Source of the DNA: Candidatus Micrarchaeota archaeon
GTDB taxonomy: Archaea; Micrarchaeota; Micrarchaeia; Norongarragalinales; SBBD01
Assembly (NCBI GenBank): GCA_038046605.1
Contig: JBBSVW010000079.1
Location: 29,729 to 55,715, forward strand
DNA: 25,987 nt
Reading direction: 5' to 3'
Part shown: piece by piece, positions 2 to 16,440 of the stretch
Position numbering within the stretch: the stretch's first letter is position 1
How the letters are laid out: each line of letters starts with the position of its first letter
Program-made: the position numbers and the translations under genes
The notes under the pieces: model-generated
What the model was told of the DNA's origin: nothing
The model's input: only the letters and a program-made list of their open reading frames with translations
The model's database searches: none

Positions 2-3000
2 TGCTATTCCGGATCAGATAATGGCACAATTGGCTCACTAGATTTGCTCTTCCCAAAAGGCGCCAGTGGATCGCGGGAAATTGCGCTTAAAATAAAGGTC
101 AAACCAGATGCGCCCGCATCCTCATCATTTGCATTCAACTACAAAGCCTATGCGGTAAGGAAAGGGGTGGTTGCCTTATTCCCCCAAGAAGAGGAAGTAA
201 GGAAGCTTGCGGATAACATCGCCCCCGTTGATGCCGTGAAAAGCATGTGCACTGGCAAGAACGCAATAAAGCAGCTCAAAATCACCTCTTCCCCGCTTAC
301 CTGCCTGGATGGAGGCAATTTCTGCCGAAAAATTATTTTCGATAAAAAAAGCGAAATCCCCCTTGGAAGCGATTTCCTTGTAAAATTTGAAATCCTATCC
401 CAAGAGCCAGTTGATACCATTTCCATTGGGAGCAAGAATGTCAAATTGACGGGAAGCAGCACAGGGGATGGCTTTGCGGATGACAATTCCGCCGCTGGAG
501 CCGATACCCAAATAGCTTCCATTTCCATTCCCGCAGGCATCAAAACATCCGGCTTCCTCAAGTTTTCAGCAATCCGCGCGGGAACAACTGATTTGCGCCT
601 CTCATTCAACACCGAAAAGAATTCCTACAAGGTAAGCAAGAATTTGCGGATTACCGGCGATAACCTCATGGCGGTTTCCGTTTCGCCCTTGACGCTTTTA
701 ACTGGGGAGGAAAAGAAAGTCACAATCCGCGCCTTATCCGATAATGATGCGCCAATTACCGATGCAATTGTAACGCTATATGATTGCGACAAATCTCCCC
801 TTGGAGCGGAGGAGTTGCAATCGCTTGGCAATAATGAACGAAATGAGGGGCAGGATGGGCGCTATATTATTTCCGCAAACCCACAAGCTTTTGGCAAAAT
901 TGGCATTCGTGTATCCCACCCCGAATACAAAACTTATGACGAATGCAAAATTGATGTTGGCATAAGCGAAGATACGCTGACAATTTCGCCATCCTCAATA
1001 AAACTTACGGGCGATTCCACCAAAACAATTGAAGAAGAGTTCACGATTTCGACAACCCTAGATGCGAAAAGCACGGTTTCCGTCATTTCCAATTGCGGAA
1101 CGGAAATCTCCCCTGTAATTTATGCCGAGCCAAATGAAATTACCAATTTCCGCGATTCACAGACCATCACAATAGGCATTCTGCCGGAATTGACTGTGAG
1201 GAAAACCTGCAACCTCCTCATTCAGCAGCGCTTCACCAAGAATTCCATGATCTCAAAAACAATCCCGATTAAAATCGATGTGCACGGGCCTACATTCATC
1301 CCAAGCCCCGAGCCATCGGTTCCACCAATAACTTCCCCAATCCCCAGTGTTGATCCTTCCGCTGACCCATCCATTTCCCCTCCAGGAACAATTGAAATCC
1401 CAGGCACCATCGAATTGAAATTGGATGAAATCGGCTTTGACAACAAGGTCTTTTCCGCAAAGAACATCGGTGAACCAATCAATTGCGAGATTATAGCGGA
1501 GGCGAATTTCCGGGTACGCGCCGAGTGCACCGCTAAATACGTTTCCCTAACCGCGGATTACATTGGCGAAGCGCTCACAAAATCATTCCGGAAAAAAGGG
1601 CAGCTCAAGATCACCCTGCAGGATAGCGAGCCGGCTTATTACAATATTGTGGTAACCGCGCTGGATGCATTTTCCGATTCAACGGATGGATCCCTCAACT
1701 ACTATTCGGATCTGCAGGGTGTGCCAAACCCCATCATACTTGAGCTTGATGCAAGCACGCGCAGGTTTGATTTGCAGTACTCCCTTGGCGCATTTGGGGA
1801 GCCCGTTTCCTCCTGCGCCCTCCAAAACCTCGAATATGGGATAACAACCGAATTCTGCGGCCCAGTTGACCAGAAGGTTCGGCTTCTTGCTGATTTTTCC
1901 TCCTCCGAAACATACAACAATTTGCTCTCGCGCATCTATGCAAACAACCCCTCCTGCATGAACTATTATTCGCAGCAAGGGTACGATCGCAGCTACCCCA
2001 ATGGCTATTTTGGGAATGGAGGATTGGGAGGCCAAGGCGGCTATGGGAACATGGGCTATGGGGGAAATTACCTAGATGCCAATTTGAATGGAGGCTACAA
2101 TTACGGTACCGGACAATCCTATTATGGGGGAAACCTGCAAGGCCAATACAATTACAATTCCCAGCCCTACAACCAGTTTTCCGATGGCTATTACCCCGCC
2201 CCACAATACTCCGGAGGATATGTGGACTATGGCAATTACCCGGGCATGAATTATCAGCAGCAGCCCTACCAATACCCCTACTCCCCCTACACGCAAAACA
2301 ATTTGCGCTCCAGCTCCTCAATTTCATTTGGCATTGGCAATTCCAATATTGATCCTAGATTTTCCGCAGGCAATTGCGATTCGGGTTTTTTGGAGGGCTC
2401 AATTGCATTCCTCTTGAGATCCGGAAGGCGCGAATCGGTTGCCGTAAGGATAATTGCAAAAGGCGGCAACCCATATCCAAATATCCTCGGCCCAAGGCAA
2501 ATTCCATGCTACAATTGCAACCAACAAGGCAGGGGTGCCGCTTCCAGCCAAAACGAAATACTGGATAACCAGATCATAATCGAGCTTGATCCCTTTACCC
2601 TCCAAAGGTATGCGCAATATGAGATTTCCGCTGGCTCTGCAAGCACCAGCTCGCCCCTATGCAAGGTTGAATCCGATCCAAAGTACTTTGCAGGGATTGC
2701 CCAAAACCTCAATTACAACCCGCTTTCAACATCGAGGCAATCATTCAACCCCTTATCCGGTCCCTCAACTTCCGGAAAATATGAATCCGCAATAAAAGGA
2801 TCCGTCTCCTGCGATATCGAGGACAATCAACTTCAAATCAAACTGATGGCAGATGCGAGCAAGATATCAATTCCAAAAGGCAAAGTCGGAACGGCCCTGA
2901 ACAAGGAAGACGAGCTTTACTTGTACATGAATTATTACAATCCTTCAAGGATCGTTCTTGCGCCCGTGCAGCTTTCTATAGGTGAAACGGGGGATTACGA

Positions 3001-5197
3001 TATAGAGCCCATTTCCAATAATCTCCAGTTCATTGTAACCGACAAGGAGCCATCCCTAACAAATGCAAATTTCAAGAAAACCGATGACATCTTCTCAAAG
3101 GAGGATTGCAAAGTGACGGGAATTCCGGGTGCCACCGCTAAAACCACTGATATAGGCGAATTTAGAAGCGGGGTGGGTTTGAAGGGCACATTCGCTAAAG
3201 GGAATTTTGTGCTTGAGCAAAAGGATGGAAAATACGCTTTCAAGGAGGTTCCGATTGAAGTTACGGAAGGTATTTTTGAATTCCCCAAAATTCCAACCTC
3301 TCCGGGCTCGCTTAAGTGCGATACCGTCAAGGGATCGGTATCTGCAAAATTGAATTTCGCGGCAATACCTAAAGAGCACATGCTAATTTTCGAAAATGGC
3401 GAAAAACCGGCGGTATTGGACAGGCAAATTGATTTTGCAGGAAAGATAGGTCCTCATGACCCCGGAAAGGAATATGGTTGTGAAATATCCTCATCCGAAC
3501 ACTCGAAAGAATTCGATGAGGCTCTGAAAGGAAAGCCCGATTCTGCGAAAACAACGATTTTTTCGTGCAAGCTTGCAGCCGATTCTTTGAAATTCTCCGC
3601 GGATTATTCTAGTTTTGCCCCCAAGGATGGATTTTCAGACCAACTTACGCTGACTTTGTATTCAATCACCAATTATCCAAAGAGCAAATTGGAGGCAAAG
3701 GAAACGAAACGGGAATTAGGTGTCATTAAGGTAAACATCAAGAGTGAAGGATACCTTGAAGGATCGCTATATTTCTCCCTGGATCTTAACGGCAATAAAC
3801 GCATACCTACCAAGTCCTCGTTTGCAAACATCAACACTAAAATATCCTACCTTGCCCATTTCCCCGCAGGCGATGAAAAAGGGAAGAGGATCGCATCACT
3901 TCTGTATTATGATAAGGACTCGATTAAGGAACTCATTGAAAAAACCGGTTCGGGAAAAATTACCCCAAGCGATTATGCCAAGGGAATAAAAATCCTTGAA
4001 TTTTCCGATCCGGCGACAATTACCTTAATGGAAAAGGGCGAAATGCAAGAATATGTACTGGATAAGGAAGGAATTTACGTATTGTATTCTAAAACGGTTT
4101 TAGGGGGCAAGGAGATGCAGGCCTTCGCCGCAATTGGAGTTAAGGATTTTGCATCGCTTACGCCCGCAGACGCCCCCGAGGTTTCCGATGCTGTGAAATA
4201 TGTTGGGGATGAAAATAGCGGAAAATGGGTTGTCGAGGAAAAGCTTGCCAATTCGGGCGATGTGCTTGCCGAATACAGCAAGAATGGGGCCCCAAGCGGC
4301 GATTTAAGCAAAGAAACAATTTTTCAGCCAACGATGCCCGGAGCAACTATTTCCGACGGCTTTGCCTGTAAGGTCAATAGGGATACGAACCATGCCGGGG
4401 TTGATTTTGCTGTTAAAAGTGGAACGGATGTGTATGCCATTGCAAGCGGAAACATCATCGCTGCGGGCTGCGGTAATGGGGGCATTGATCCCAAATGCAC
4501 AAAAGAAGGTGAAGGCAACCGGGTTGTTATTGACCACAAAAACGGGTGCTTTAGCGGATACTATCATTTGGATGAGATTTCTGTAAAGATGGGCGATCAA
4601 ATCCCAAAAAACACTAAAACACTTATTGCAAAATCAGGGAATACGGGTTCGTCCACAACCGGCCCGCATCTCCATTTTGAATATTATTGCGGTAAGCCTG
4701 GTTCTTTTGAAGCCCAAAATCCATGTGGAATGCTGGGTATAACTGATCCCAAGTGCAGTTGCGGCAGCAAAGCGGTGGCAGTAAACGGCGCTGATGCAGC
4801 CGGCGCATCCTCCTACAAGGCAGCAGATTTCTGGCACATCGAAAGCTGCGTTGCAGAAGCCGGCACGTTCCTTCTGGGCGGCGGTCTCAAATTCACATTG
4901 AAGACGAACACTGCGCCAAATGACATCGTTTCATGGTATGCAACGGAGGGGAATGACGAATATTTAATGAAATTCTATTGCAATGAAAAGTTAGTGAGCG
5001 GGGATGGCCTTACCCGGGATGGGCAATTCTACAATATCAAGAAAGGGGAAACATTTGTTGAGAGGGAGCGGAGCCATTGGACAGAGTCGATGCTTTATGT
5101 TTGCGATAAGGGCATATATGCGGCTTTAGCCAATCCCAAGGGTGAATTGATTGGTGGGGACGCAGCTAAGCAAAAATGCACCATCAAATCAGGTTAA
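2..5197 (+). CDS. Giant Cys-rich cell-surface protein with Ig-like/beta-sandwich repeats and a C-proximal M23 metallo-endopeptidase domain; 5'-truncated by the window
   Basis: The frame is open from base 2 (CYSGSDNGTIGSLDLLFPKG...), so the true start is upstream. Contains a carboxypeptidase-regulatory-like segment (DAPITDAIVTLY...DGRYII...VSHPEY), a Pro/Ser/Thr linker (~1290-1400) and a Y/G/Q/N-rich tract (~1960-2300). M23 motifs are HAGVD (His codon 4391), GNRVVIDH, YYHL and SGNTGSSTTGPHLHFE (HxH 4667-4675). Confidence 0.9.
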   Translation, partial: CYSGSDNGTIGSLDLLFPKGASGSREIALKIKVKPDAPASSSFAFNYKAYAVRKGVVALFPQEEEVRKLADNIAPVDAVKSMCTGKNAIKQLKITSSPLTCLDGGNFCRKIIFDKKSEIPLGSDFLVKFEILSQEPVDTISIGSKNVKLTGSSTGDGFADDNSAAGADTQIASISIPAGIKTSGFLKFSAIRAGTTDLRLSFNTEKNSYKVSKNLRITGDNLMAVSVSPLTLLTGEEKKVTIRALSDNDAPITDAIVTLYDCDKSPLGAEELQSLGNNERNEGQDGRYIISANPQAFGKIGIRVSHPEYKTYDECKIDVGISEDTLTISPSSIKLTGDSTKTIEEEFTISTTLDAKSTVSVISNCGTEISPVIYAEPNEITNFRDSQTITIGILPELTVRKTCNLLIQQRFTKNSMISKTIPIKIDVHGPTFIPSPEPSVPPITSPIPSVDPSADPSISPPGTIEIPGTIELKLDEIGFDNKVFSAKNIGEPINCEIIAEANFRVRAECTAKYVSLTADYIGEALTKSFRKKGQLKITLQDSEPAYYNIVVTALDAFSDSTDGSLNYYSDLQGVPNPIILELDASTRRFDLQYSLGAFGEPVSSCALQNLEYGITTEFCGPVDQKVRLLADFSSSETYNNLLSRIYANNPSCMNYYSQQGYDRSYPNGYFGNGGLGGQGGYGNMGYGGNYLDANLNGGYNYGTGQSYYGGNLQGQYNYNSQPYNQFSDGYYPAPQYSGGYVDYGNYPGMNYQQQPYQYPYSPYTQNNLRSSSSISFGIGNSNIDPRFSAGNCDSGFLEGSIAFLLRSGRRESVAVRIIAKGGNPYPNILGPRQIPCYNCNQQGRGAASSQNEILDNQIIIELDPFTLQRYAQYEISAGSASTSSPLCKVESDPKYFAGIAQNLNYNPLSTSRQSFNPLSGPSTSGKYESAIKGSVSCDIEDNQLQIKLMADASKISIPKGKVGTALNKEDELYLYMNYYNPSRIVLAPVQLSIGETGDYDIEPISNNLQFIVTDKEPSLTNANFKKTDDIFSKEDCKVTGIPGATAKTTDIGEFRSGVGLKGTFAKGNFVLEQKDGKYAFKEVPIEVTEGIFEFPKIPTSPGSLKCDTVKGSVSAKLNFAAIPKEHMLIFENGEKPAVLDRQIDFAGKIGPHDPGKEYGCEISSSEHSKEFDEALKGKPDSAKTTIFSCKLAADSLKFSADYSSFAPKDGFSDQLTLTLYSITNYPKSKLEAKETKRELGVIKVNIKSEGYLEGSLYFSLDLNGNKRIPTKSSFANINTKISYLAHFPAGDEKGKRIASLLYYDKDSIKELIEKTGSGKITPSDYAKGIKILEFSDPATITLMEKGEMQEYVLDKEGIYVLYSKTVLGGKEMQAFAAIGVKDFASLTPADAPEVSDAVKYVGDENSGKWVVEEKLANSGDVLAEYSKNGAPSGDLSKETIFQPTMPGATISDGFACKVNRDTNHAGVDFAVKSGTDVYAIASGNIIAAGCGNGGIDPKCTKEGEGNRVVIDHKNGCFSGYYHLDEISVKMGDQIPKNTKTLIAKSGNTGSSTTGPHLHFEYYCGKPGSFEAQNPCGMLGITDPKCSCGSKAVAVNGADAAGASSYKAADFWHIESCVAEAGTFLLGGGLKFTLKTNTAPNDIVSWYATEGNDEYLMKFYCNEKLVSGDGLTRDGQFYNIKKGETFVERERSHWTESMLYVCDKGIYAALANPKGELIGGDAAKQKCTIKSG
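4318..4730 (+). other. Peptidase M23 (LytM/lysostaphin-type) zinc domain within the giant ORF
   Basis: HxxxD (HAGVD) and HxH (GPHLHFE) zinc ligands, catalytic His in YYHL, and the typical GTDVYAIASG and GNRVVIDH segments. Confidence 0.92.
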
Positions 5198-5203
5198 ATC
5201 GAA

Positions 5204-5608
5204 TTAGAGGTACTTCCTCTCCCGGAGGATCTTCCTGGCAGATGGATAATCGCTTGCCTTCATTGCAACAAGGATGCTTCCGTTCTCCTCCTTGTTTATC
5301 ACGAGCATAGAATCAATGTTGATTTTGTGATCCGCCATCAATCTTGATATTTTGGCAAGCTCTCCGGGCTTATCTGGTATCCCGACGACTAGTATATCCG
5401 TATCCATAACCTTGAAACCAACTGCTTCCAGCACCTTTTTGCTTTTTGCAGGATCGCTTACAACCAGCCTAATGATGGAATCCCTAGCCGAGCTATCCAC
5501 AGAAACGGAATCAATGTTGATCCCAGCTTTTGCCAGCGTTTCGGATACATCCGCAAGCAATCCGATCCGGTCTTTTGCAACTACCGTTATCTCCTTTGTC
5601 GCATTCAT
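5204..5608 (-). CDS. Tandem ACT-domain protein (amino-acid-binding regulator type), about 134 aa
   Basis: Two ACT repeats: KDRIGLLADVSETLAKAGINIDSV and PDKPGELAKISRLMADHKINIDSM. Start placed at ATG 5608 after a G-rich RBS; TATA-like TTTAAA at 5644-5649. Confidence 0.88.
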   Translation of the reverse strand: MNATKEITVVAKDRIGLLADVSETLAKAGINIDSVSVDSSARDSIIRLVVSDPAKSKKVLEAVGFKVMDTDILVVGIPDKPGELAKISRLMADHKINIDSMLVINKEENGSILVAMKASDYPSARKILRERKYL

Positions 5609-5670
5609 GTTTTGCCCCCCCGCTATAAGGAAGGCGCTAGTCATTTAAATTGGTTTGGAAAAAGCGTCTT

Positions 5671-5845
5671 GGGGGAACCTAGGTTCCCCTGCTATCGTTG
5701 AGCATTCTCAACTCATCGCGAAGCATCCGCTTCACGATACCCTTGGAAGCATCCACTTCCTATTTTTGATTTGCGCATCAAATTAAGGGGGTAGAGGCGA
5801 CTACGAGTAGGGGGGTTAGCCCCCTAGTGGTGTCAGGGTGTCAAA
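5671..5845. repeat. Hairpin-rich intergenic element, copy 1 (MITE/PATE-like or structured ncRNA)
   Basis: Six consecutive stem-loops or palindromes: 5672-5689 (perfect 18-bp GGGGAACCTAGGTTCCCC), 5697-5712, 5720-5733, 5745-5760, 5765-5782 and 5808-5826. Shares TAAGGGGG..GGCGAC, GAAGCATC hairpins and a terminal GGGTGTCAAA with the element at 9668-9768. Confidence 0.6.
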
Positions 5846-5856: not shown

Positions 5857-5920
5857 TCTTGATTGCGAAATAATGTCTCTTCTAAAGGGCTAGGGGATTC
5901 TCCAACTGTTGGTTGATACG

Positions 5921-6151
5921 ATGGATACTAATTTTAGCCATGTCTTTCTCCCTAAGCAAACCATAGCCACCGAGGAGGAAGTGCAAGAAGTCCTCGAAAA
6001 ATACAAAATTACCAAGGAAAATCTTCCCCTTATAAAATCCGACGACCCATCCGCCAAGGCGCTTTCCGCCAAGGCCGGCGATGTCCTTAAAATTGAGCGG
6101 ACATACGGGGAGAGCAAGGAGGAGTTATACTACCGGCTGGTGATCGATTAA
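5921..6151 (+). CDS. rpoH: DNA-directed RNA polymerase subunit H (Rpo5)
   Basis: HVFLPKQ..., LPLIKSDDP..., GDVLKIER...YYRLV are Rpo5/Rpb5 signatures. First gene of the canonical cluster; its TAA overlaps the next ATG. ATG 5921 is preferred over TTG 5909. Confidence 0.96.
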   Translation: MDTNFSHVFLPKQTIATEEEVQEVLEKYKITKENLPLIKSDDPSAKALSAKAGDVLKIERTYGESKEELYYRLVID

Positions 6152-7623
6152 TGGATTGCGCAGAACTCACAAAGCATTATCTGCAGGATAGCTCCGTTAT
6201 GCGGCAGTTTATCGATTCCTACAACAAGTTCATCGAAGAGGGCCTCCAATTGGTTGTCGAGGCGCAATCGACAATCGAGCCCCAGGTTGAAAATCTCGTT
6301 CTCAAGCTTGGAAAAGTCACGGTCGGCCAACCATCAGTTACTGAAGCCGATGGCACAAGGCGCGTCCTTTACCCCCAGGAGGCAAGGCTTCGCGATTTAA
6401 GCTATACCGCCCCGCTCTTCCTTGAAATCACCCCTCTTTTTTCCGGATCCGAAGGCAGGACCGAAACAGTCTTCATTGGCGAACTGCCAGTCATGCTCAA
6501 ATCAAAAATCTGCTATCTATCAATAATGAACCGCGATGAGCTGCTCTCCGCGGGCGAGGATCCACTGGACCCCGGCGGGTATTTCATCATTAATGGAACA
6601 GAAAAAGCGCTCATTAGCATTGAGGACCTTGCGCCAAACCGCATTTTCGTTTCAAGGGAAAAGGAAAAAGAGCTCATCCAGGCAAAGGTTTTTTCCACAA
6701 GGCTTGGCTTTAGGGGAAGGATCACGGTTGATCGCACCCGCGAGGGCAGGCTTTCCGTTACGCTTCCATCATTCAACAAATCAATCGAACTGCTTGTTCT
6801 CCTAAAGGCTCTTGGCCTAGATAAGCCCGAAAAGGTTTCCGCGGCATTCCCCGACATGATTGAAATCCACAACGATCTTCTGCTTAATTATGAGGCGGAT
6901 GCGGACATCAAGACAAAGCGTGATGCCCTTGAGGCAATTGGCAAAAGGGCGGCGCCTGGCCAACCCGTTGATTACCAGCTAAAGCGCGCAGAACTCCTAA
7001 TTGACAGATACCTCCTTCCTCACATCGGCGTCGATGAAAAGGACCGCCTTGCAAAGGCCTATTACCTATGCAGGATGGGCGAGCGTGCAATCCTAACCGC
7101 ATACCGCAAGCGCAAACCGGAGGATAAGGATCACTACGCAAATAAGCGCATCAAGATCACCGGAAAACTGATGGAAGAGCTCTTCAGGTACGCCTTCCAA
7201 TTCTTCGTCAAGGATGTTGCCTACCAGCTTGAGAGGGCAAACATCCGAAGGAGGAAAATGACCCTGTTCACAATTGTTCGCCCCGATGCCCTAACCGAGC
7301 GCATCAAGTATTCCATGGCAACTGGCAATTGGATGGGAGGGCACACCGGCGTTTGCCAGCCGCTTGACCGCTACAATTTCATTTCCTCAATTGCATTCAT
7401 GCGAAGGGTCATTTCGCCACTTGCTAAAAAGCATCCGCACCACAAGGCAAGGGATTTGCATGGCACCCATTATGGGCGGCTTGATCCCAACGAAACGCCC
7501 GAAGGCCCCAACTGCGGGCTTATAAAATCGCTTGCGATGTTTTGCGAAATCACGCCCGGCTCCGAGGAAAAGGGTGTTGAAAAGACGCTCCGTTCCCTTG
7601 GGGTTACGATGCAGGCGCTTTGA
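6151..7623 (+). CDS. rpoB2: DNA-directed RNA polymerase subunit B'' (Rpo2N)
   Basis: PQEARLRDLSYTAPL, GELPVMLKS, DPGGYFIINGTEK, DKDHYANKRI and ETPEGPNCGL motifs; 490 aa. Confidence 0.97.
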   Translation: MDCAELTKHYLQDSSVMRQFIDSYNKFIEEGLQLVVEAQSTIEPQVENLVLKLGKVTVGQPSVTEADGTRRVLYPQEARLRDLSYTAPLFLEITPLFSGSEGRTETVFIGELPVMLKSKICYLSIMNRDELLSAGEDPLDPGGYFIINGTEKALISIEDLAPNRIFVSREKEKELIQAKVFSTRLGFRGRITVDRTREGRLSVTLPSFNKSIELLVLLKALGLDKPEKVSAAFPDMIEIHNDLLLNYEADADIKTKRDALEAIGKRAAPGQPVDYQLKRAELLIDRYLLPHIGVDEKDRLAKAYYLCRMGERAILTAYRKRKPEDKDHYANKRIKITGKLMEELFRYAFQFFVKDVAYQLERANIRRRKMTLFTIVRPDALTERIKYSMATGNWMGGHTGVCQPLDRYNFISSIAFMRRVISPLAKKHPHHKARDLHGTHYGRLDPNETPEGPNCGLIKSLAMFCEITPGSEEKGVEKTLRSLGVTMQAL

Positions 7624-7833: not shown

Positions 7834-9642
7834 ATGAAGAGCTCGGTTTTCCTAAACGGCAGGTTCATTGGCTTCCATGACGATGGCCGCAAGCTTGCGG
7901 GTGAGCTTCGCGACAAGCGGCGCAAGGGCGAACTTAGCCCCCATGCCAACATCTGCTTTTACGATAGGACAAACGAGCTATTTGTAAATACCGACGAAGG
8001 CAGGGCAAGAAGGCCACTTGTTGTAGCAAAGAATGGCAAAAGTGCAATCATTCCAGAGCATACCGAAAAGCTGCGCAATGGGCAACTCCAATGGAAGGAA
8101 CTTGTTTCAAAAGGATTAATCGAATACCTGGATGCCGAAGAGGAGGAAAACGCCTATGTTGCAATGCGCGAAGAGGACCTGAACCCCCAGCACACTCACA
8201 TTGAAGTTGATTCCACCTCGATGCTTGGCTATGTCTCAAACCAGATCCCATTCCTAGAGCACAACATGGCCCCCAGGGTCTTGATGGCTTCCCAGCACGC
8301 AAAGCAGGCCCTTGGCCTATACGCAGCAAACTTCAATTTGCGCGGCGAAACCCGCGGATATGTTTTATTCTACCCCCAGCGCCCAATTGTGCAAACCCGC
8401 ATTTACGAAAATCTAAAGAACTACAAGCGATGCGCCGGCCAGAATTTTGTCGTCGCGGTCCTTTCCTATTATGGCTTCAACATGAACGATGCTATTGTCC
8501 TCAACAAGAGCGCAGTAGATAGGACGCTTGGAAGATCCGCCTTTTTCCGCACCTATTCCGCTGAGGAACGCAGGTACCCTGGCGGGCAAAAGGATAAATT
8601 CGAAATCCCCCCGGAGTACGTTCAGGGCTACTTAGGTGAGGAAATTTACCAAAATATCGAGCCCGACGGGCTTATTTCCCCCGAGGTTTATGTGCCGGGC
8701 GATTCAGTCCTGATTGGAAAAAGCTCCCCCCCAAGATTCCTAAAGGAAATTTCCGCCCTGGATGTGGAGGTTGAAAAAAGGAGGGAGAGCTCCGTTACCG
8801 TCCGCAGCAATGAGGATGGGATAGTTGATTCCGTCATGGTTTCGGAAAGCAAGGCGGGGAACCGCTTTGTGAAAGTCCGTGTGCGCAAAACAAATGTCCC
8901 GGAAATTGGCGACAAATTTTCCTCAAGGTATGGGCAAAAAGGGATCGTTGCCCTGCTAGTCAACCAGGAGGATATGCCATTCACAAAGCAGGGAATTGTC
9001 CCGGATCTGATCATCAACCCCCATGCAATTCCCGGAAGAATGACTGCGGGCCATCTGCTTGAGATGCTTGGAGGCAAGGCTGCCTGCATGGAAGGCACAA
9101 TCCGTGATGGCACCAGCTTTACCGGGGATTCGCAGGATGATTACGAGGCAATCCTTAGCAGGTACGGCTTTGAGCCATCCGGCCACGAGATTTTATACGA
9201 TGGCTACACCGGGCAAATGATTGCGGCAAAAATATTCACCGGCGTCATCTATTACCAGCGGCTCCACCACCTAGTCGGCCTTAAGATCCATGCCAGGAGC
9301 AGGGGACCCGTGCAGATGCTAACACATCAGCCAACCGAAGGAAGGGCAAGGGAAGGGGGCTTGCGTCTTGGGGAGATGGAACGTGATTGCTTCATTGGCT
9401 TTGGCGCCAGTTCGCTTCTAAAGGAGAGGATGATTGAAAGCTCGGATAAAACCACCGAGCTGATATGCACCAAATGCGGCGCTTCGGGGGTTTTTGATAA
9501 GCTCAAGAACAAGTCATACTGCCCGCTTTGCGAAAGCACGAGCGTAGCGGAAGTCGAGATGAGCTATGCATTCAAGCTTCTCATGGATGAAATGAAATCC
9601 ATTGGCATCTTCCCAAAGATTAATTTGAAGGAAAAAGGTTAA
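7834..9642 (+). CDS. rpoB1: DNA-directed RNA polymerase subunit B' (Rpo2C)
   Basis: IEYLDAEEEE, GQNFVVA, GDKFSSRYGQKG, PDLIINPH, QPTEGRAREGGLRLGEMERD and a C-terminal zinc ribbon (CTKC..CPLC). RBS GGTGG upstream. Confidence 0.98.
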   Translation: MKSSVFLNGRFIGFHDDGRKLAGELRDKRRKGELSPHANICFYDRTNELFVNTDEGRARRPLVVAKNGKSAIIPEHTEKLRNGQLQWKELVSKGLIEYLDAEEEENAYVAMREEDLNPQHTHIEVDSTSMLGYVSNQIPFLEHNMAPRVLMASQHAKQALGLYAANFNLRGETRGYVLFYPQRPIVQTRIYENLKNYKRCAGQNFVVAVLSYYGFNMNDAIVLNKSAVDRTLGRSAFFRTYSAEERRYPGGQKDKFEIPPEYVQGYLGEEIYQNIEPDGLISPEVYVPGDSVLIGKSSPPRFLKEISALDVEVEKRRESSVTVRSNEDGIVDSVMVSESKAGNRFVKVRVRKTNVPEIGDKFSSRYGQKGIVALLVNQEDMPFTKQGIVPDLIINPHAIPGRMTAGHLLEMLGGKAACMEGTIRDGTSFTGDSQDDYEAILSRYGFEPSGHEILYDGYTGQMIAAKIFTGVIYYQRLHHLVGLKIHARSRGPVQMLTHQPTEGRAREGGLRLGEMERDCFIGFGASSLLKERMIESSDKTTELICTKCGASGVFDKLKNKSYCPLCESTSVAEVEMSYAFKLLMDEMKSIGIFPKINLKEKG

Positions 9643-9803: not shown

Positions 9804-9935
9804 AGCAAAAAAGCAATTAGCATTAAAATTTCGGAATGGAATTTTTCCGGAATGCATCTTTATTTTTTAATATTTTTTTTAATTGGATTGTTCCGCATTT
9901 GAAGGGCAATTTAATATTTCAAAGGTTTGATAAGC

Positions 9936-12900
9936 ATGAAAGTAATCGAAAGCATTGAATTTTCCGTCTTCTCCCCGGACAATGTGCGCAAGCTCTCATC
10001 CGCCAAGATCACCGTTCCAGACACTTATGATGAGGATGGCTATCCTATCGCCGGGGGCCTTGCGGACCAGCACCTTGGCGTCATCGACCCTGGCCTTAAG
10101 TGCAAGACATGCGGGGGCAGGATGAAGAGCTGCTCGGGCCATTTTGGCCACATCGAACTTGTGCGCCCCGTAATCCATGTGGGATTTGCAAAGATGATCT
10201 ACCAGCTTTTGAAGGCAACCTGCAACAGGTGCGGAAAGCTCCTTCTTGAAATCGATTCGCTTGACAAGGCAAAAAAAGTCGCCGAATGCCCGCACTGCGG
10301 CGAGAAGCAAAAGGTAATCAAGTTCATCCGCCCAATTTCCCTCTACGAAGAGGAGCGAAAGCTATTGCCATCCGAAATCCGTGAGCGCATCGAGCGAATC
10401 CCGGATGAGGCCTTAAATCAGCTCCACGTCGCATTCAGGCCGGAGTGGATTGTCCTAACCGTCCTTCTTGTCCCTCCCGTATCCGTCCGCCCCTCCATCA
10501 CATTGGAAACCGGCGAAAGAAGCGAGGATGACCTGACGCATAAACTAGTGGATATCATCCGCATCAACCAGCGCCTTGCGGAAAACATCGATGCCGGCGC
10601 GCCGCAACTTATCATTGAGGATTTGTGGGAGCTTTTGCAATACCATGTGGTGACTTATTATGATAACGAAACTGCCGGGATTCCCCCTGCAAGGCACAGG
10701 TCCGGAAGGCAGCTAAAAACGCTCTTCCAACGCCTTAAAGGAAAGGAGGGGCGCTTCAGGTACAACTTGTCCGGAAAGCGTGTCAACTTCTCTGCAAGGA
10801 CTGTCATCTCGCCCGATCCATCCCTTGGAATCAACGAACTGGGAATTCCTGAGAGCATAGCAGCAGAACTCACCCTTCCTCTTACGGTAAACGAGTGGAA
10901 CATGGAGTATGTCAAGGACCTGATTGCAACCCACACCGAAAAAATAAATTATGTCATCAGGCCAGATGGCAGGCGCAAGCGCGTAACAAAAGCCAACCTG
11001 GAAGAAGTCCTTGGGGAAATCGCAACCGGCTACACCCTCGAGCGGCAGCTGATGGATGGCGATACCGTGATTTTCAACAGGCAGCCATCCCTTCACCGTG
11101 TTAGCATGATGTGCCATAGCGCAAAAATCCTCCCGGGCAAGACATTTAGGTTCAACGTTGCAGATTGCCGGCCCTACAATGCCGATTTCGACGGGGATGA
11201 AATGAACCTGCACGTGCCGCAAAATGAGGAGGCGCAGGCGGAGGCCGAAATTTTGATGAAGGTGCACGACCAGATACTATCCCCGAGGAATGGCGAACCA
11301 ATAATTTCAGCTGATTTGGACCAAATCTCAGGCCTATACCTCATGACACTTCCGGGAATCAAATTCACCAGGACGGAGGCATGCGAGCTTTTGCAATCCG
11401 GCGATATCGTTGCCAATGTGAAGGAAGGCCTAACCGGGCATGAAATGTTTTCCATGCTGCTTCCGGATGATTTTGCATTCCAGTTCACAAACAAGGTCAA
11501 GGAGCTTGTGGAAATCAAGAAGGGCAAGCTTATTTCGGGGCACATCGACAGCAAAACCAATGATGCAATCACCCGCGAGATCTTTTTGAAATATGGTGCG
11601 CAGCCAACGCAAAAATTCATTGACGCTTCCACAAAGATGTCGCTAAAAGTGCTTGCAATCTACGGCCTTTCCCTTTCGCTTGCGGACTACGAGCTCCCAA
11701 TCGAGGCGAAGAATGAAATCCGCGGCGTCGTAAAGGAAAGCCGCGGCCTGCAAAAGATCGTGATCAACCAATTAAAGGAAGGGCGGCTTTTACGCCAGCC
11801 CGGAAAAACACTTAAGGATACCTTCGAGGAGAAGATGATGAACATCCTTGAGGAAACCAGGGAGAAGTGCGGAAAAATCATCCTGCACTACGTGCACAAG
11901 CAAAAGGTGTATTTTGGAGGGATTGAAATCCATCACAATCCCGCAATCATGATGAGCAAGGCGGGAGCCAAGGGAAAACTCCTCAATGTCGTCCAAATGG
12001 CGGCGCTTGTAGGGCAGCAGGCCATCCGTGGAAAGCGCATGACTGCTGGCTATTCCAACCGCATCCTGTCGCATTTCCGAAAAGGGGACCTATCCGCGTA
12101 TGCAAAGGGCTTTGTTTCAAACAATTACAAACTGGGCATGGACACGGTCGAATATTTCTTCCATGCGGCAGGAGGAAGGGACTCCGTCGTTGACAAGGGA
12201 GTCAACCCCGCAAAGACAGGTTACATGCAAAGAAGGCTAATTAACGCCCTGCAGGACCTGATTGTGAGGGAGGATATTTCCGTTCGTGACGCCGAGGGCA
12301 ACATCGCCCAATTTTTCTATGGCGGCGATGGGCTTGACGCTTCCGGAAAGCCAATAACTTATGGCGAACCGGTGGGGGTTATTGCAGCCCAAAGCATCGG
12401 CGAACCTGGAACACAAATGACGCTCCGGACATTCCACTACGCTGGGGTTGCCTCGCTTGCGCAGCTTGGATTTACCCGGCTTGTCGAGATCGTGGACGCC
12501 CGGAAATCCCCAAAGAGCCCAGTCATGGACATTGTCCTGAAGGCGCAGTACTCGAAGGATTACAAGAAGGTTGCGCACATTGCCGCGAGCATCGAGCAAA
12601 TCCCGCTAAACAAGATCGCATCGATCAAGGAGGATTTTGAAAACAAGCGCATAAAGATAATTCTTGATAAGGAGAAGATGAAGCAGCTATCGGTAGATGA
12701 TGAGGAAATACTAAAGGCGATCAAGACCGTTGCGGAATATGAGAAACGCGGTGATACCGTGATGGTCATCCCCAAGCAAGATACCCTAAAAATCGTGCGC
12801 AAGACAACAACCAAGCTTTCCGAAATCATCCTCAAGGGAATTGCCGGCATCAACCGCGCAATCATCATTAACCAGCCTGATGGCACGTTCACGATTGCAA

Positions 12901-13328
12901 CCGAAGGGACGAACCTTGAACAAGTGCTCCAAATCCCCGAAGTCGAGGCCAGCAGGACGACATCAAATGACATAATGGAGGTAAACCGCGTGCTTGGGAT
13001 TGAGGCCGGCCGCAATTCAATTGTTGCCGAGATCGAAAAGGTCCTAAAAGCGCAGGAGCTAAAAGTTGATCACCGCCATATTGCACTAATTGCCGATGTC
13101 ATGAGCTACAAGGGCGAAATCAAGAGCATTGGTAGGCACGGGCTTGCAGGAGAGAAGGCATCCGTCCTTGCGCGCGCCGCATTCGAGGAGACCGCAAAGC
13201 ACCTGATAAGCGCCTGCATTGCCGGCGAAAAGGACGAACTGCGCGGAATCACCGAGAACATCATCATCGGCCAGACGATCCCCTGTGGAACGGGGCTTGT
13301 GAAGGTTGTGATGAAAGCGCAGGATTAA
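9936..13328 (+). CDS. rpo1: DNA-directed RNA polymerase largest subunit, A' and A'' fused (Rpo1N+Rpo1C), about 1130 aa
   Basis: CSGHFGHIEL, RLKGKEGRFRYNLSGKRVNFSARTVI, NRQPSLHR, catalytic NADFDGD (11178-11198) and GYMQRRL. In the same frame follow the A'' motifs GEPVGVIAAQSIGEPGTQMTLRTFH, SVLARAAFE and ENIIIGQ..PCGTG. ATG 9936 is preferred over TTG 9927. Confidence 0.97.
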   Translation: MKVIESIEFSVFSPDNVRKLSSAKITVPDTYDEDGYPIAGGLADQHLGVIDPGLKCKTCGGRMKSCSGHFGHIELVRPVIHVGFAKMIYQLLKATCNRCGKLLLEIDSLDKAKKVAECPHCGEKQKVIKFIRPISLYEEERKLLPSEIRERIERIPDEALNQLHVAFRPEWIVLTVLLVPPVSVRPSITLETGERSEDDLTHKLVDIIRINQRLAENIDAGAPQLIIEDLWELLQYHVVTYYDNETAGIPPARHRSGRQLKTLFQRLKGKEGRFRYNLSGKRVNFSARTVISPDPSLGINELGIPESIAAELTLPLTVNEWNMEYVKDLIATHTEKINYVIRPDGRRKRVTKANLEEVLGEIATGYTLERQLMDGDTVIFNRQPSLHRVSMMCHSAKILPGKTFRFNVADCRPYNADFDGDEMNLHVPQNEEAQAEAEILMKVHDQILSPRNGEPIISADLDQISGLYLMTLPGIKFTRTEACELLQSGDIVANVKEGLTGHEMFSMLLPDDFAFQFTNKVKELVEIKKGKLISGHIDSKTNDAITREIFLKYGAQPTQKFIDASTKMSLKVLAIYGLSLSLADYELPIEAKNEIRGVVKESRGLQKIVINQLKEGRLLRQPGKTLKDTFEEKMMNILEETREKCGKIILHYVHKQKVYFGGIEIHHNPAIMMSKAGAKGKLLNVVQMAALVGQQAIRGKRMTAGYSNRILSHFRKGDLSAYAKGFVSNNYKLGMDTVEYFFHAAGGRDSVVDKGVNPAKTGYMQRRLINALQDLIVREDISVRDAEGNIAQFFYGGDGLDASGKPITYGEPVGVIAAQSIGEPGTQMTLRTFHYAGVASLAQLGFTRLVEIVDARKSPKSPVMDIVLKAQYSKDYKKVAHIAASIEQIPLNKIASIKEDFENKRIKIILDKEKMKQLSVDDEEILKAIKTVAEYEKRGDTVMVIPKQDTLKIVRKTTTKLSEIILKGIAGINRAIIINQPDGTFTIATEGTNLEQVLQIPEVEASRTTSNDIMEVNRVLGIEAGRNSIVAEIEKVLKAQELKVDHRHIALIADVMSYKGEIKSIGRHGLAGEKASVLARAAFEETAKHLISACIAGEKDELRGITENIIIGQTIPCGTGLVKVVMKAQD

Positions 13329-14237: not shown

Positions 14238-14480
14238 ATGAATACAGATTTCACAGTCAGGCTTCGGGGAAATAGCGCCCAATTACTCAAGGAAATGATC
14301 GACCTTGGCTACTGCGAATCAAAAACAGAGGCGGTCAGGACAGCCCTTCTAAGGTATGGGATGGAGCTGGGGTTAGTTAATGGAACAAAAATGCTTGAAG
14401 ACGTGCAGGAAGCAATCAAAAAATCAGGTAAAAAATATTCAGAAGAGGAGGTCGGGAGGCACATTGAGGCTGCCAGATGA
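14238..14480 (+). CDS. Ribbon-helix-helix (CopG-like) antitoxin
   Basis: N-terminal beta strand followed by LLKEMIDLGYCESKTEAVRTAL (RHH pattern G..S.SEA.R.A). RBS GGTGA; directly upstream of a PIN gene. Confidence 0.75.
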   Translation: MNTDFTVRLRGNSAQLLKEMIDLGYCESKTEAVRTALLRYGMELGLVNGTKMLEDVQEAIKKSGKKYSEEEVGRHIEAAR

Positions 14481-14481
14481 C

Positions 14482-14904
14482 ATGGAGAGGGTTTTTGTTG
14501 ATACGAGCGTCCTGATATGGGCATTTAATTATCCGGAAAGCAATTCCGCGACGATTGTGAAAATGATCACCAAGCGTAAGCTTCATGGGATTACAAGCCA
14601 GAAGGCAATTGAGGAAATGGAACTGGTATTGACCGGAGAATACGATTCATCAATATTTTACAAGGCCAAAAAGCAGGTGCTTTATTTTTTTCAAGTCATT
14701 CCCCGGGAAAGGATCAGTGGCGAAATGGAAAAATGGAGGGGGAAAATCAAGGAAAAGGATTTGGAACATCTGGCAACCGCCAAAGCCCTTGGAATTAGGG
14801 TATTGCTTGCCGTGGATAGGGATTTTGAGCCATTTCAAGAATATATGACACCAAAGGAATTCCTGAAAGCGAGGGGGTTTGAGGCAAACGAAACGGATTA
14901 TTGA
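14482..14904 (+). CDS. vapC: PIN-domain (VapC-like) toxin
   Basis: RVFVDTSVLI, EE, KDLEHLATA and AVDRDF supply the PIN acidic residues. Start placed at ATG 14482, 1 bp after the antitoxin stop. Confidence 0.85.
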   Translation: MERVFVDTSVLIWAFNYPESNSATIVKMITKRKLHGITSQKAIEEMELVLTGEYDSSIFYKAKKQVLYFFQVIPRERISGEMEKWRGKIKEKDLEHLATAKALGIRVLLAVDRDFEPFQEYMTPKEFLKARGFEANETDY

Positions 14905-14973: not shown

Positions 14974-15351
14974 TCAGATCATCTCCACATCCTTTTTCCC
15001 CACAAAATGCCTATCTCCGGTAACTAATTTCAGGCCGTTCGCAAGCGCAGTTGCGTAGATCATGGAATCAACCATCCCAAAATCCTTCATCTCCTTCTTA
15101 TATTGGATATGCAGCTCGCCGGCAAGTTTTGCAATGTCCTCCCGAAATTCGAGGATAGCGGATAATCGCTTCACATTTTCAATTATGAGGCTCGGATCGC
15201 GATTATTCCGGATAGCCCAGCTTGTTAGTTCCGAAATTGTTGCCATTGCTGTTGCGGCGGTTTCCGCATTGATCAGATTGGCAACTCTCCTGCCCGCCTC
15301 TGTATCGTTGAATAGCTCAACCCACGAATAAGTGTCAAACAGCATTTGCAT
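14974..15351 (-). CDS. vapC: PIN-domain VapC toxin
   Basis: LFDTYSWVE, ISEL, GMVDSMIYATA and LVTGDRHF motifs. Confidence 0.92.
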   Translation of the reverse strand: MQMLFDTYSWVELFNDTEAGRRVANLINAETAATAMATISELTSWAIRNNRDPSLIIENVKRLSAILEFREDIAKLAGELHIQYKKEMKDFGMVDSMIYATALANGLKLVTGDRHFVGKKDVEMI

Positions 15352-15778: not shown

Positions 15779-16192
15779 TCACACCTTCCCCGGCAAAACC
15801 GCACTCACTTCAGAATATCCCCTGAAATCCAAATCAACCGTTATCACATTCTGGATCTCATTGCCCTGCGCGACGCATACCTGCAAAAGATCGCGGTTTG
15901 AGACGGAATAGCCGTATTTTTTTATGAGTTCGAGGTAATTGGCGATGTCCAATTCCGTTACCGGAAGCACGGCAAGCCCCATTGCAAGGATCCGCCAGCA
16001 CATATCCGCGCCATCCTTGGTTTTGCCCATCCTGGAAAAGCGGTAGGTGATTTCCTGGAAGGTTTCCGTTGTGATGGCGGCCTCGATTTCACCCGCATGA
16101 ATCCGCCTAAGGATTGCTGCGCACGAAGCCTTATGGTCGCTCTCGCTTCCCGCAGCATACATGAAAATGCAGGTATCGACCAAATACCTCAT
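15779..16192 (-). CDS. vapC: PIN-domain VapC toxin
   Basis: MRYLVDTCIFMYAAG, TETFQEI, SNRDLLQV and ITVDLDF motifs. ATG overlaps the antitoxin TGA (ATGA). Confidence 0.9.
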   Translation of the reverse strand: MRYLVDTCIFMYAAGSESDHKASCAAILRRIHAGEIEAAITTETFQEITYRFSRMGKTKDGADMCWRILAMGLAVLPVTELDIANYLELIKKYGYSVSNRDLLQVCVAQGNEIQNVITVDLDFRGYSEVSAVLPGKV

Positions 16193-16440
16193 CCAAAACG
16201 CCCCTCCAACTGCTTTTTGATGTTTTTCCAATCCTCAATTGGAAGGTTCATGCCAATCAAATCCTCAACTGGATTCCCAGATGATGCATAAACTGGCTGC
16301 AAAATCAGACGCTCCTCCTCCTTTGTTAGCTTCTCGACTGAAATTTCAAGGAAGCCGCCTTCCAGTTTCGCTTCAGTGCGCAGGCGTTTGGGGATAGATA
16401 TCCTGCCAAATTTATCAATTCTGGCAAAGTAACGTTTCAT
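16189..16440 (-). CDS. AbrB/MazE/SpoVT-family antitoxin
   Basis: ARIDKFGRISIPKRLR AbrB motif, RBS GGTGA before ATG 16440, translationally coupled to vapC. Confidence 0.82.
   Translation of the reverse strand: MKRYFARIDKFGRISIPKRLRTEAKLEGGFLEISVEKLTKEEERLILQPVYASSGNPVEDLIGMNLPIEDWKNIKKQLEGRFG

Follow-up and report, generated by a model that had tools for sequence, protein, structure and literature searches.

A putative membrane-tethered M23 endopeptidase on a giant surface protein of Norongarragalinales (Micrarchaeota)

The stretch of DNA analyzed here, hereafter the window, comprises 25,987 nucleotides (nt) of a Candidatus Micrarchaeota archaeon of the order Norongarragalinales (assembly GCA_038046605.1, contig JBBSVW010000079.1, positions 29,729 to 55,715), and opens with the 3' part of a giant gene, here termed giant B. 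The product of this gene carries an intact M23 peptidase domain near its C-terminus, and we consider it probable (roughly 0.6) that the protein is a membrane-tethered, extracellular M23 endopeptidase aimed at bacterial peptidoglycan. According to this proposal, a short conserved cytoplasmic N-terminus and a single transmembrane helix would hold the protein in the archaeal membrane, and would be followed outside the cell by prealbumin- and immunoglobulin (Ig)-like repeats, a conserved module, a Pro-rich linker, a flexible stretch rich in Gly, Tyr, Asn and Gln (G/Y/N/Q) and further sequence, with a disulfide-rich zinc endopeptidase of the LytM/lysostaphin/zoocin A type and a variable tail at the far end. 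Such an arm could carry the peptidase to the wall of a bacterium nearby, or to fragments of walls, where it would cut the peptide stems or cross-links of peptidoglycan, and the outcome would be either a wall opened at the site of contact or the release of peptides as food.

The peptidase domain and the protein that carries it

The Pfam hidden Markov model Peptidase_M23 (PF01551) recognizes the domain with 77.9 bits (E 6.8e-22; cut-off 28.7), and with 83.6 bits in the scan of the genome; we take its MEROPS family to be M23. An initial annotation, made on the letters of the window, had claimed a complete active site consisting of three motifs, and all of them are present: HAGVD, YYHL and HLH pair with the corresponding motifs of zoocin A (phmmer, PDB 5kvp, E 3.3e-15), the functional roles of these residues are known from LytM, and the H-x3-D, y-H and H-x-H signatures are kept in the six orthologs (6/6) that bear the domain. 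Thirty-two distinct PDB sequences match at E values of 0.01 or less, the best of them being active murein peptidases (zoocin A, 3.3e-15; Pgp3-type, 2.3e-12; then LytU, lysostaphin, LytM and ShyA), and partial matches were obtained to the NCBIfam models of Pgp3, MepM and ShyA. In an AlphaFold model of the last 332 residues, built on a 25-row alignment, the blocks of the M23 core reach mean values of 71-94 in the predicted local distance difference test (pLDDT), with the exception of one inserted loop of low pLDDT (residues 93-99 of this modelled tip of the protein). Foldseek aligns this model to truncated LytM (2b13_A) with a TM-score of 0.83 on the target and a root-mean-square deviation of 2.8 A over 141 columns, and lists 67 PDB matches with E values of 0.001 or less, lysostaphin, Pgp3, ShyA and EnvC among them. 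The approximately eight Cys that had been noted in the region are exactly eight in residues 1440-1600, and the last 332 residues hold 12. Hence, a model score above the cut-off, the zinc ligands together with the two catalytic His, and the beta-sheet fold that define family M23 are found together, and on this basis the domain is intact and predicted to be catalytically competent. Its placement near the tip of the protein needs a slight correction, since the domain does lie near the C-terminus but not at the very tip, about 170 residues following the Pfam match.

The protein had been described as longer than 1730 residues and incomplete at its N-terminus. The window begins right after a run of 10 N (C79:29719-29728, directly 5' of window base 1 and one of 11 such runs in the genome), so that the missing N-terminus sits across an assembly gap, and recovery of the full open reading frame (ORF) through this gap to an ATG yields a gene at C79:27672-34925 (L003:10673-17926) with 2417 codons as scaffolded and a product of about 2412 residues once the gap artefact is removed. 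The five bases before the N run are identical to the first five after it, and the scaffold encodes two Cys at the gap where six continuous genus-level orthologs have one. An independent 2647-residue protein from a protein collection (P0116) is 42% identical over 2366 residues, straight across the gap, which is also bridged by a 1299-nt contig of sequencing run X2 and by a 151-nt contig of run X3, from a different study; both contigs omit exactly 15 letters, that is, the 10 N and the five repeated bases. The gap inside the giant B gene is therefore an overlap artefact, and the join is in frame. The genome itself comprises 1.64 Mb in 106 contigs and is 90.7% complete with 0.3% contamination. In an RNA library of another study (X9), one contig of 166 nt is identical to positions 3629-3794 of the window, which is no proof of transcription because such libraries can contain DNA; the contigs of the other runs are DNA, and regions that they leave uncovered are uninformative.

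In all nine giant B frames, namely that of the window and those of eight orthologs, a single strongly hydrophobic segment, predicted to be a transmembrane helix, is located at approximately residues 35-60, preceded by a conserved Lys/Glu-rich segment of about 30 residues, and no hydrophobic segment was found near the C-terminus in any of the nine. These results agree with the initial annotation, which had reported the absence of a C-terminal membrane anchor and placed the anchor in the missing N-terminus. One ortholog (G008) presents a second, weaker hydrophobic window in mid-protein. A type IV pilin-like signal was considered and rejected, since the helix begins about seven residues after the only K-G site, which does not suit the rule for class III signals. 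Given the N-terminal anchor and the pattern of Cys, the long part of the protein should be extracellular, with some 2350 residues probably outside the cell and a stalk that is likely to be extended.

The stalk begins with beta-sandwich repeats of the CarboxypepD_reg, Big_1, bMG3 and SpaA types, which reach approximately residue 500 of the full protein; kinship with alpha-2-macroglobulins was considered and discarded, because only sub-threshold or generic bMG3/MG4 beta-sandwich matches were obtained. The repeats are followed by a module conserved across the order, recognizable in 37 of the 41 genomes of our first sample (window genome included) and 23-62% identical in 25 relatives, the alignment of which contains invariant columns of Cys, Gly and Pro. 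This module has no match in Pfam, a profile of it has none among PDB sequences (best E 0.62), and a language-model atlas provides only weak Ig-like (Big_1/invasin) leads, with scores of at most 0.81 that fall within the range of shuffled proteins. We define here a family of giant surface proteins of the Norongarragalinales, giant B, by a conserved cytoplasmic N-terminal motif with one transmembrane helix, CarboxypepD_reg/Big_1 repeats, the module of about 450 residues and a position between a second giant gene (giant A) and an ACT-domain gene, all of which are found in the window protein.

Evidence on the substrate

A domain scan of the 35 other M23-bearing frames of the order revealed three frames that combine M23 with SLT (G040, G048 and G050, the last also with YkuD), and one each that combines it with Amidase_3 and SLT (G040), with Amidase_2 and SLT (G049), with NlpC/P60 and Amidase_3 (G025) and with Amidase_3 (G057); two more frames join M23 to a GDSL esterase and two to a metallophosphoesterase, while 24 of the 35 carry M23 alone or with unassigned sequence. 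Nine of the 35 were tallied as carriers of an additional murein-enzyme domain (SLT, Amidase_3, Amidase_2, NlpC/P60 or YkuD). SLT domains, amidases that cleave between N-acetylmuramic acid (MurNAc) and L-Ala, NlpC/P60 and YkuD all act on murein. Two of the contigs with such fusion genes (G040:C6 and G048:C1) also carry an archaeal rpoB' gene, 70% identical to that of the window, and the fusion genes on them are consequently archaeal and chromosomal rather than binned bacterial DNA. In another family of the order, three adjacent M23 domains are spread over two neighbouring genes (G048:C1:119077-120472 and G049:C30:24951-26414), and these clusters include proteins with two M23 domains each. One giant B ortholog (G007) shows a weak match to DPBB_1 (RlpA-like) after its M23 domain, at 23.2 bits and thus below the cut-off of 28.8.

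Mur ligases (Mur_ligase_M), penicillin-binding protein transpeptidases and the FtsW/RodA (SEDS) family were not found in the 90.7% complete window genome, in searches that were positive in 10-12 of 14 control genomes. This agrees with the initial annotation, which noted that archaea lack peptidoglycan, and leaves the archaeon with no apparent wall of its own to remodel. Taken together, the fusions with murein enzymes in the order, the lack of detected genes for own murein synthesis and the nature of the closest matches make bacterial murein the most likely substrate. The idea that the stalk presents a wall-cutting enzyme against bacteria is partly supported: it stands as regards an intact, anchored M23 domain in an order with murein-enzyme fusions, and the support for its target is indirect.

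Several observations weigh against this proposal. To our knowledge, cultured Micrarchaeota live on wall-less Thermoplasmata and not on bacteria. M23 enzymes can also cut proteins, as does LasA, an M23 member that cuts elastin and that is found among our PDB sequence matches. Giant B carries the only murein-hydrolase-type domain of the window genome, in which SLT, Amidase_3 and NlpC/P60 were not found, and a search of the protein and its orthologs against Pfam (E values up to 1) detected no LysM, PG_binding_1, SH3b or other wall-binding domain, the matches in the protein being limited to M23 and to the Ig-like and prealbumin-like repeats. Furthermore, three complete orthologs (G003, G006 and G008) are devoid of M23, so that the stalk works without it, and no bacterial donor or enzyme subtype can be named because only 12 of the 99 branches of the M23 tree are well supported.

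Some of these points favour a protease for proteins, which might act on an archaeal partner's S-layer or surface proteins or on Gly-rich stretches in surface proteins of the archaeon itself; in one variant, the cutting of its own G/Y/N/Q-rich stretch would lead to self-processing or to release of the tip. We regard this alternative as doubtful, although it has several arguments on its side: some M23 enzymes are known to cut Gly-Gly bonds in proteins, the protein contains a Gly/Tyr-rich stretch of 111 residues with seven Gly-Gly dipeptides, LasA belongs to M23, the known partners of Micrarchaeota are wall-less archaea, and neither a wall-binding domain nor another murein hydrolase was found. 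Against it, every characterized close match is a murein peptidase, and in this order M23 shares polypeptides with the murein-specific SLT, amidase, NlpC/P60 and YkuD domains.

A domain that binds wall or peptide without hydrolysis, in the manner of the degenerate LytM domains found in EnvC and NlpD, would suit a stalk built like an adhesin, and the LytM domains of EnvC, NlpD, DipM and SpoIIQ do appear among the weaker matches. Degenerate LytM domains have, however, lost their zinc ligands, whereas all ligands and both catalytic His are kept here and in the orthologs that bear the domain. The M23 domains of the giant proteins are only about 35-54% identical, and the retention of ligands and catalytic His despite such fast divergence is a mark of selection on catalysis, which renders a purely binding role improbable.

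The initial annotation had also contemplated pseudomurein-walled methanogens, on the sole reasoning that a walled archaeal partner would be a methanogen. As a target, the pseudomurein of methanogens of the Methanobacteriales type in the same groundwater is very unlikely, since the partner domains of M23 in the order (SLT and MurNAc-L-Ala amidases) need MurNAc-containing murein, and the pseudomurein endoisopeptidases known to date are cysteine peptidases and not M23 enzymes. In addition, the accessible part of a recent survey of archaeal peptidoglycan hydrolases (Strock et al. 2025, PMC12352652) reports just two homologs of such hydrolases in 117 genomes of Methanobacteria and Methanopyri, from which its authors concluded that pseudomurein is not the substrate of the great majority of these archaeal enzymes. 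The dependence on a host that had been deemed probable for this archaeon appears doubtful in view of its 1.64 Mb genome and of a report (2025, PMC12892359) which, in the part available, ascribes broad biosynthetic capacity and possible host independence to Norongarragalinales.

A conserved stalk, a variable tip and a near-absence of sequons

M23 domains were identified in 30 of 68 genomes of the order and in 70 of 301 sampled Micrarchaeota genomes (67 of them above the cut-off), with a single match in the window genome. Matches above the cut-off in frames of more than 2000 residues are restricted to one family (f1; G000, G001, G004, G005 and G007), and a genome of another family (G247) has a sub-cut-off match of 20.9 bits in a frame of 2117 residues. 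Nine orthologous giant genes were fetched, five of which carry M23, with P0116 as a sixth carrier; besides the three complete orthologs without the domain, one (G002) is cut by a contig end. As to whether orthologous stalks bear other tip domains, nothing credible was detected in the last 800 residues of these four orthologs (Pfam, E values up to 1). The stalk is 40-70% identical among genus members and the last third only 10-40%, and the tails that follow M23 are unrelated, save between the window genome and its closest ortholog (G001). The window tail accordingly resembles only that of G001, differing from those of P0116, G004 and G007. It has pLDDT values below 50 over approximately its 140 residues, and no usable match in the language-model atlas; a search of 1.84 billion representatives gave 39,890 hits, and in the best 150 of these nothing outside the M23 core was matched. 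By analogy, the tail is a candidate targeting domain. The picture suggested by these comparisons is that of a conserved stalk with a fast-evolving or exchangeable tip.

The proposed phylogeny of the domain against bacterial and phage sequences names neither a donor lineage nor an enzyme subtype. A tree of 300 domains has 37 well-supported branches out of 287; the smaller tree cited above contains 102 domains, for which all order and giant-protein domains of at least 80 residues, the representatives P0115-P0160 (which carry no taxon labels) and 14 hand-picked matches were kept and other fetched proteins were dropped. An approximately unbiased test does not reject a tree in which the six domains from giant proteins form one clade (p 0.838); this constrained tree is 37.6 log-likelihood units better, which is no proof of the clade.

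A second conserved trait of giant B is the near-absence of N-glycosylation sequons (N-x-S/T, where x is not Pro). The protein has one in 2425 residues, against 18.6 +/- 3.7 expected from shuffling, and in 1000 shuffles so low a count never arose; in the seven orthologs tested, 0-4 sequons compare with 13-17 expected, and their counts too were reached in 0/1000 shuffles. Control motifs occur at normal frequency in giant B (reverse motif, 19 against 18.6; Q-x-S/T, D-x-S/T and N-x-A/G), as do sequons in giant A (21 against 18.3 expected) and in the polymerase subunits. Giant B ranks second in depletion (Poisson 1.9e-7) among the genome's 785 stop-to-stop frames with 250 or more residues. The other depleted frames are of surface type and comprise a paralog that shares the N-terminal repeats of giant B, an RHS-repeat protein, several CARDB proteins and a fusion of DsbA with CARDB. 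Conversely, two frames of about 5400 residues (C35 and C9) are enriched approximately threefold (356 against 120 and 370 against 138 expected). An AglB/STT3 gene is present at C73:79095-80054 (50.9 bits; cut-off 24.5). Such depletion requires selection, and its simplest reading is that giant B encounters the N-glycosylation machinery on the outer side of the membrane and has to be kept without glycans, a state that fits an enzyme or adhesin that must touch the surface of another cell.

Two of the depleted frames deserve mention in their own right. The RHS-repeat frame (L151, G000:C37:3-3143), which is cut by a contig end, has no sequons against 12.9 expected and is possibly a polymorphic-toxin-like surface protein. 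The sequon-poor fusion of a DsbA-like thioredoxin domain with CARDB domains (L157, G000:C2:14758-17751; 998 residues) is a candidate for an enzyme that forms disulfides outside the cell, a role that would be in keeping with the many surface proteins rich in Cys.

The frequency of M23, its fusion to a giant protein and the fusions with murein enzymes together point to direct dealings with bacterial walls, be it predation, attachment or the scavenging of wall peptides. We further put forward, as a tentative possibility, that giant B is a contact weapon or feeding arm, in which a tethered and N-glycan-free arm of about 2400 residues exposes an exchangeable, fast-evolving tip, made of the M23 endopeptidase and a hypervariable targeting tail, that opens the murein of the bacterium it touches; the tail may then set the range of targets. 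If this were true, bacteria and not archaea would be the prey or partners of these DPANN archaea, and giant B would be the first device described in Archaea that is tethered and lyses murein upon contact. Freedom from sequons would then be the hallmark of "naked" surface proteins in archaea, a class that acts on other cells, as opposed to those giants of this genome that are rich in sequons and presumably form the glycan coat. Being conserved in orthologs and contrasting with those giants, the near-absence of sequons constitutes a new mark, cheap to compute, by which the surface proteins of archaea may be sorted into functional groups. As far as we know, all Micrarchaeota in culture live as partners of archaea without walls.

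Both the enzyme and the idea of archaeal murein hydrolases are already known. The catalytic domain, judged by its profile match, three motifs and fold, is common to LytM/lysostaphin/zoocin A, Pgp3, MepM and ShyA. Those bacterial enzymes are nevertheless secreted or periplasmic proteins of 130-500 residues, mostly with SH3b, LysM, target-recognition or coiled-coil partners, whereas the window domain, with its eight Cys, inserted loop and orphan tail, ends a membrane-anchored archaeal protein of about 2412 residues. In its accessible part, the survey of Strock et al. (PMC12352652) reports archaea that possess murein hydrolases, including M23 enzymes, and use them to kill bacteria, and it describes zoocin A-type M23 in 10 archaeal genomes, including five Halobacteriales and four Nanoarchaeia. 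The likeness lies in archaea without murein that encode murein hydrolases of bacterial type, read as weapons; the window protein differs from that set in having no recognized wall-binding domain, in being tethered instead of secreted and in being some 10 times larger. Since that survey required a catalytic domain together with a recognized wall-binding domain (PMC12352652), a combination that giant B lacks, our results would extend archaeal murein hydrolases to a phylum and an architecture that its rule misses; in the 12 supplementary files searched, out of 13, "Micrarchae" is absent. No publication joining Micrarchaeota, peptidoglycan and M23 was found in the literature library searched.

Other small-celled lineages offer partial parallels. 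According to the portion available of Vigneron et al. (2022, PMC9723730), Woesearchaeota encode large lytic murein transglycosylases, read as predation on bacteria; these are likewise DPANN archaea with murein-degrading genes, but they belong to another phylum, the enzyme is a GH23 glycosidase and not a peptidase, and no anchored giant stalk or conserved synteny is described in that portion. Giant surface proteins of Omnitrophota have been linked to predation (West-Roberts et al. 2023, preprint 10.1101/2023.11.21.568195) and share with giant B very small cells and very large, mostly extracellular proteins with attachment and degradation domains; the Omnitrophota giants are bacterial, exceed 10,000 residues and have many transmembrane helices and SecA-like domains, and "M23" is absent from the text of the preprint as far as available. 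The commonest large-protein matches to the tip are M23-bearing phage tape-measure and conjugative polyvalent proteins (1000-2400 residues). These carry tape-measure, NlpC/P60, CHAP or lysozyme domains, and neither tape-measure models (PF10145, PF20155) nor any further lysin domain or mobile context was found for giant B, the gene of which is chromosomal, syntenic and membrane-anchored in its product. Giant B is new in that the enzyme sits on a giant, tethered protein, in that this format is conserved, together with its synteny, within one family of Micrarchaeota, and in its seemingly exchangeable tip and near lack of sequons.

Gene neighbourhood and further features of the window

Coordinates are collected in Table 1. 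As initially annotated, the giant gene adjoins an archaeal RNA polymerase cluster, in which rpoB is split into rpoB'' and rpoB', and the RpoB' encoded in the window is 86-90% identical to that of Candidatus Norongarragalinales or Micrarchaeota archaeon entries. There is no N within the window, and the contig thus runs without interruption from the M23 domain to the polymerase genes. Synteny was assessed by tblastn of the window neighbours against orthologous loci: the ACT-domain gene lies directly 3' of giant B in all six relatives in which the stretch retrieved reaches that far (G001, G003, G004, G006, G007 and G008), rpoH-rpoB''-rpoB' come next in four of them (G001, G006, G007 and G008), and giant A is upstream in the five relatives with an upstream stretch (5/5). 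Giant A presents an N-terminal motif, transmembrane helix and CarboxypepD_reg repeats like those of giant B, followed by long repeats rich in Cys and, towards the C-terminus, by a cluster of hydrophobic residues.

The G+C content of the ORF equals that of the genome (0.468 in both). The DNA occurs in groundwater metagenomes, and contigs of one of these runs (X2) tile the region from the end of the ORF through the ACT gene to where the polymerase operon begins; 29 of 30 bins are covered, and 13 of 21 pieces show at least 99% identity. The spacer between the ACT gene and rpoH harbors a dispersed repeat of about 50 nt with G-run hairpins (positions ~5765-5840), copies of which occur on 18 other contigs; contigs of other assemblies break at this point, and the word depth in X2 is 16.1 against ~5-8 in neighbouring bins. 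This repeat is the one weak spot, and the conserved synteny settles that the contig is not chimeric between the giant ORF and the polymerase genes. An artefact of misassembly or binning, in which a fragment of an M23 gene from a bacterium or phage became attached to archaeal DNA, and for which the 10-N gap inside the gene and the repeat before rpoH might speak, is already refuted by the contigs of two other runs and the seven continuous orthologs that bridge the gap, by the uninterrupted frame that M23 and stalk share in five genomes and in P0116, by the conserved gene order and by a composition that is the same as the genome's.

Table 1. Features of giant B, of its neighbours and of the window. 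Positions are those of the window unless a contig is given; residues are those of the window frame.
Feature	Position	Strand	Remarks
Giant B, C-terminal part	2..5197	+	1731 codons and stop; frame open past the 5' end of the window
Order-wide conserved module	2..1381	+	~450 residues; alignment of 25 relatives (A2)
Pro/Ser-rich linker	1283..1387	+	35 residues
Low-complexity stretch	1964..2296	+	111 residues, 70% G/Y/N/Q, 7 Gly-Gly dipeptides; also in ortholog P0116
Sequence without assigned domain			~700 residues, between the G/Y/N/Q-rich stretch and M23
Peptidase_M23 (PF01551)	4388..4687	+	residues 1463-1562; well-modelled core ~4331-4768
H-x3-D motif HAGVD	4391..4405	+	residue 1464; M23 zinc ligands
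YYHL motif	4559..4570	+	residue 1520; conserved catalytic His
H-x-H motif HLH	4667..4675	+	residue 1556; catalytic His and third zinc ligand
Orphan C-terminal tail	4769..5194	+	142 residues, 4 Cys, strands predicted
ACT-domain gene	5204..5644	-	conserved downstream neighbour of giant B
rpoH	5909-6151		abuts rpoB''
rpoB''	6151-7623
rpoB'	7834-9642
rpoA	9927-13328		1133 residues; Rpb1 domains 1 to 5 in one ORF
Giant A (P0003)	C79:19719-26429 (L003:2720-9430)		second giant gene, 2236 residues; upstream of the window

Two further observations concern the remainder of the window. An ORF of 764 residues at 17838-20132 (-), which has no match in Pfam or NCBIfam, contains no sequons against 2.4 expected. 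Downstream of the polymerase genes, three PIN-domain ORFs are located near each other, at 14380-14904 (+), 14974-15351 (-) and 15779-16231 (-), and probably encode nucleases of the toxin-antitoxin type.

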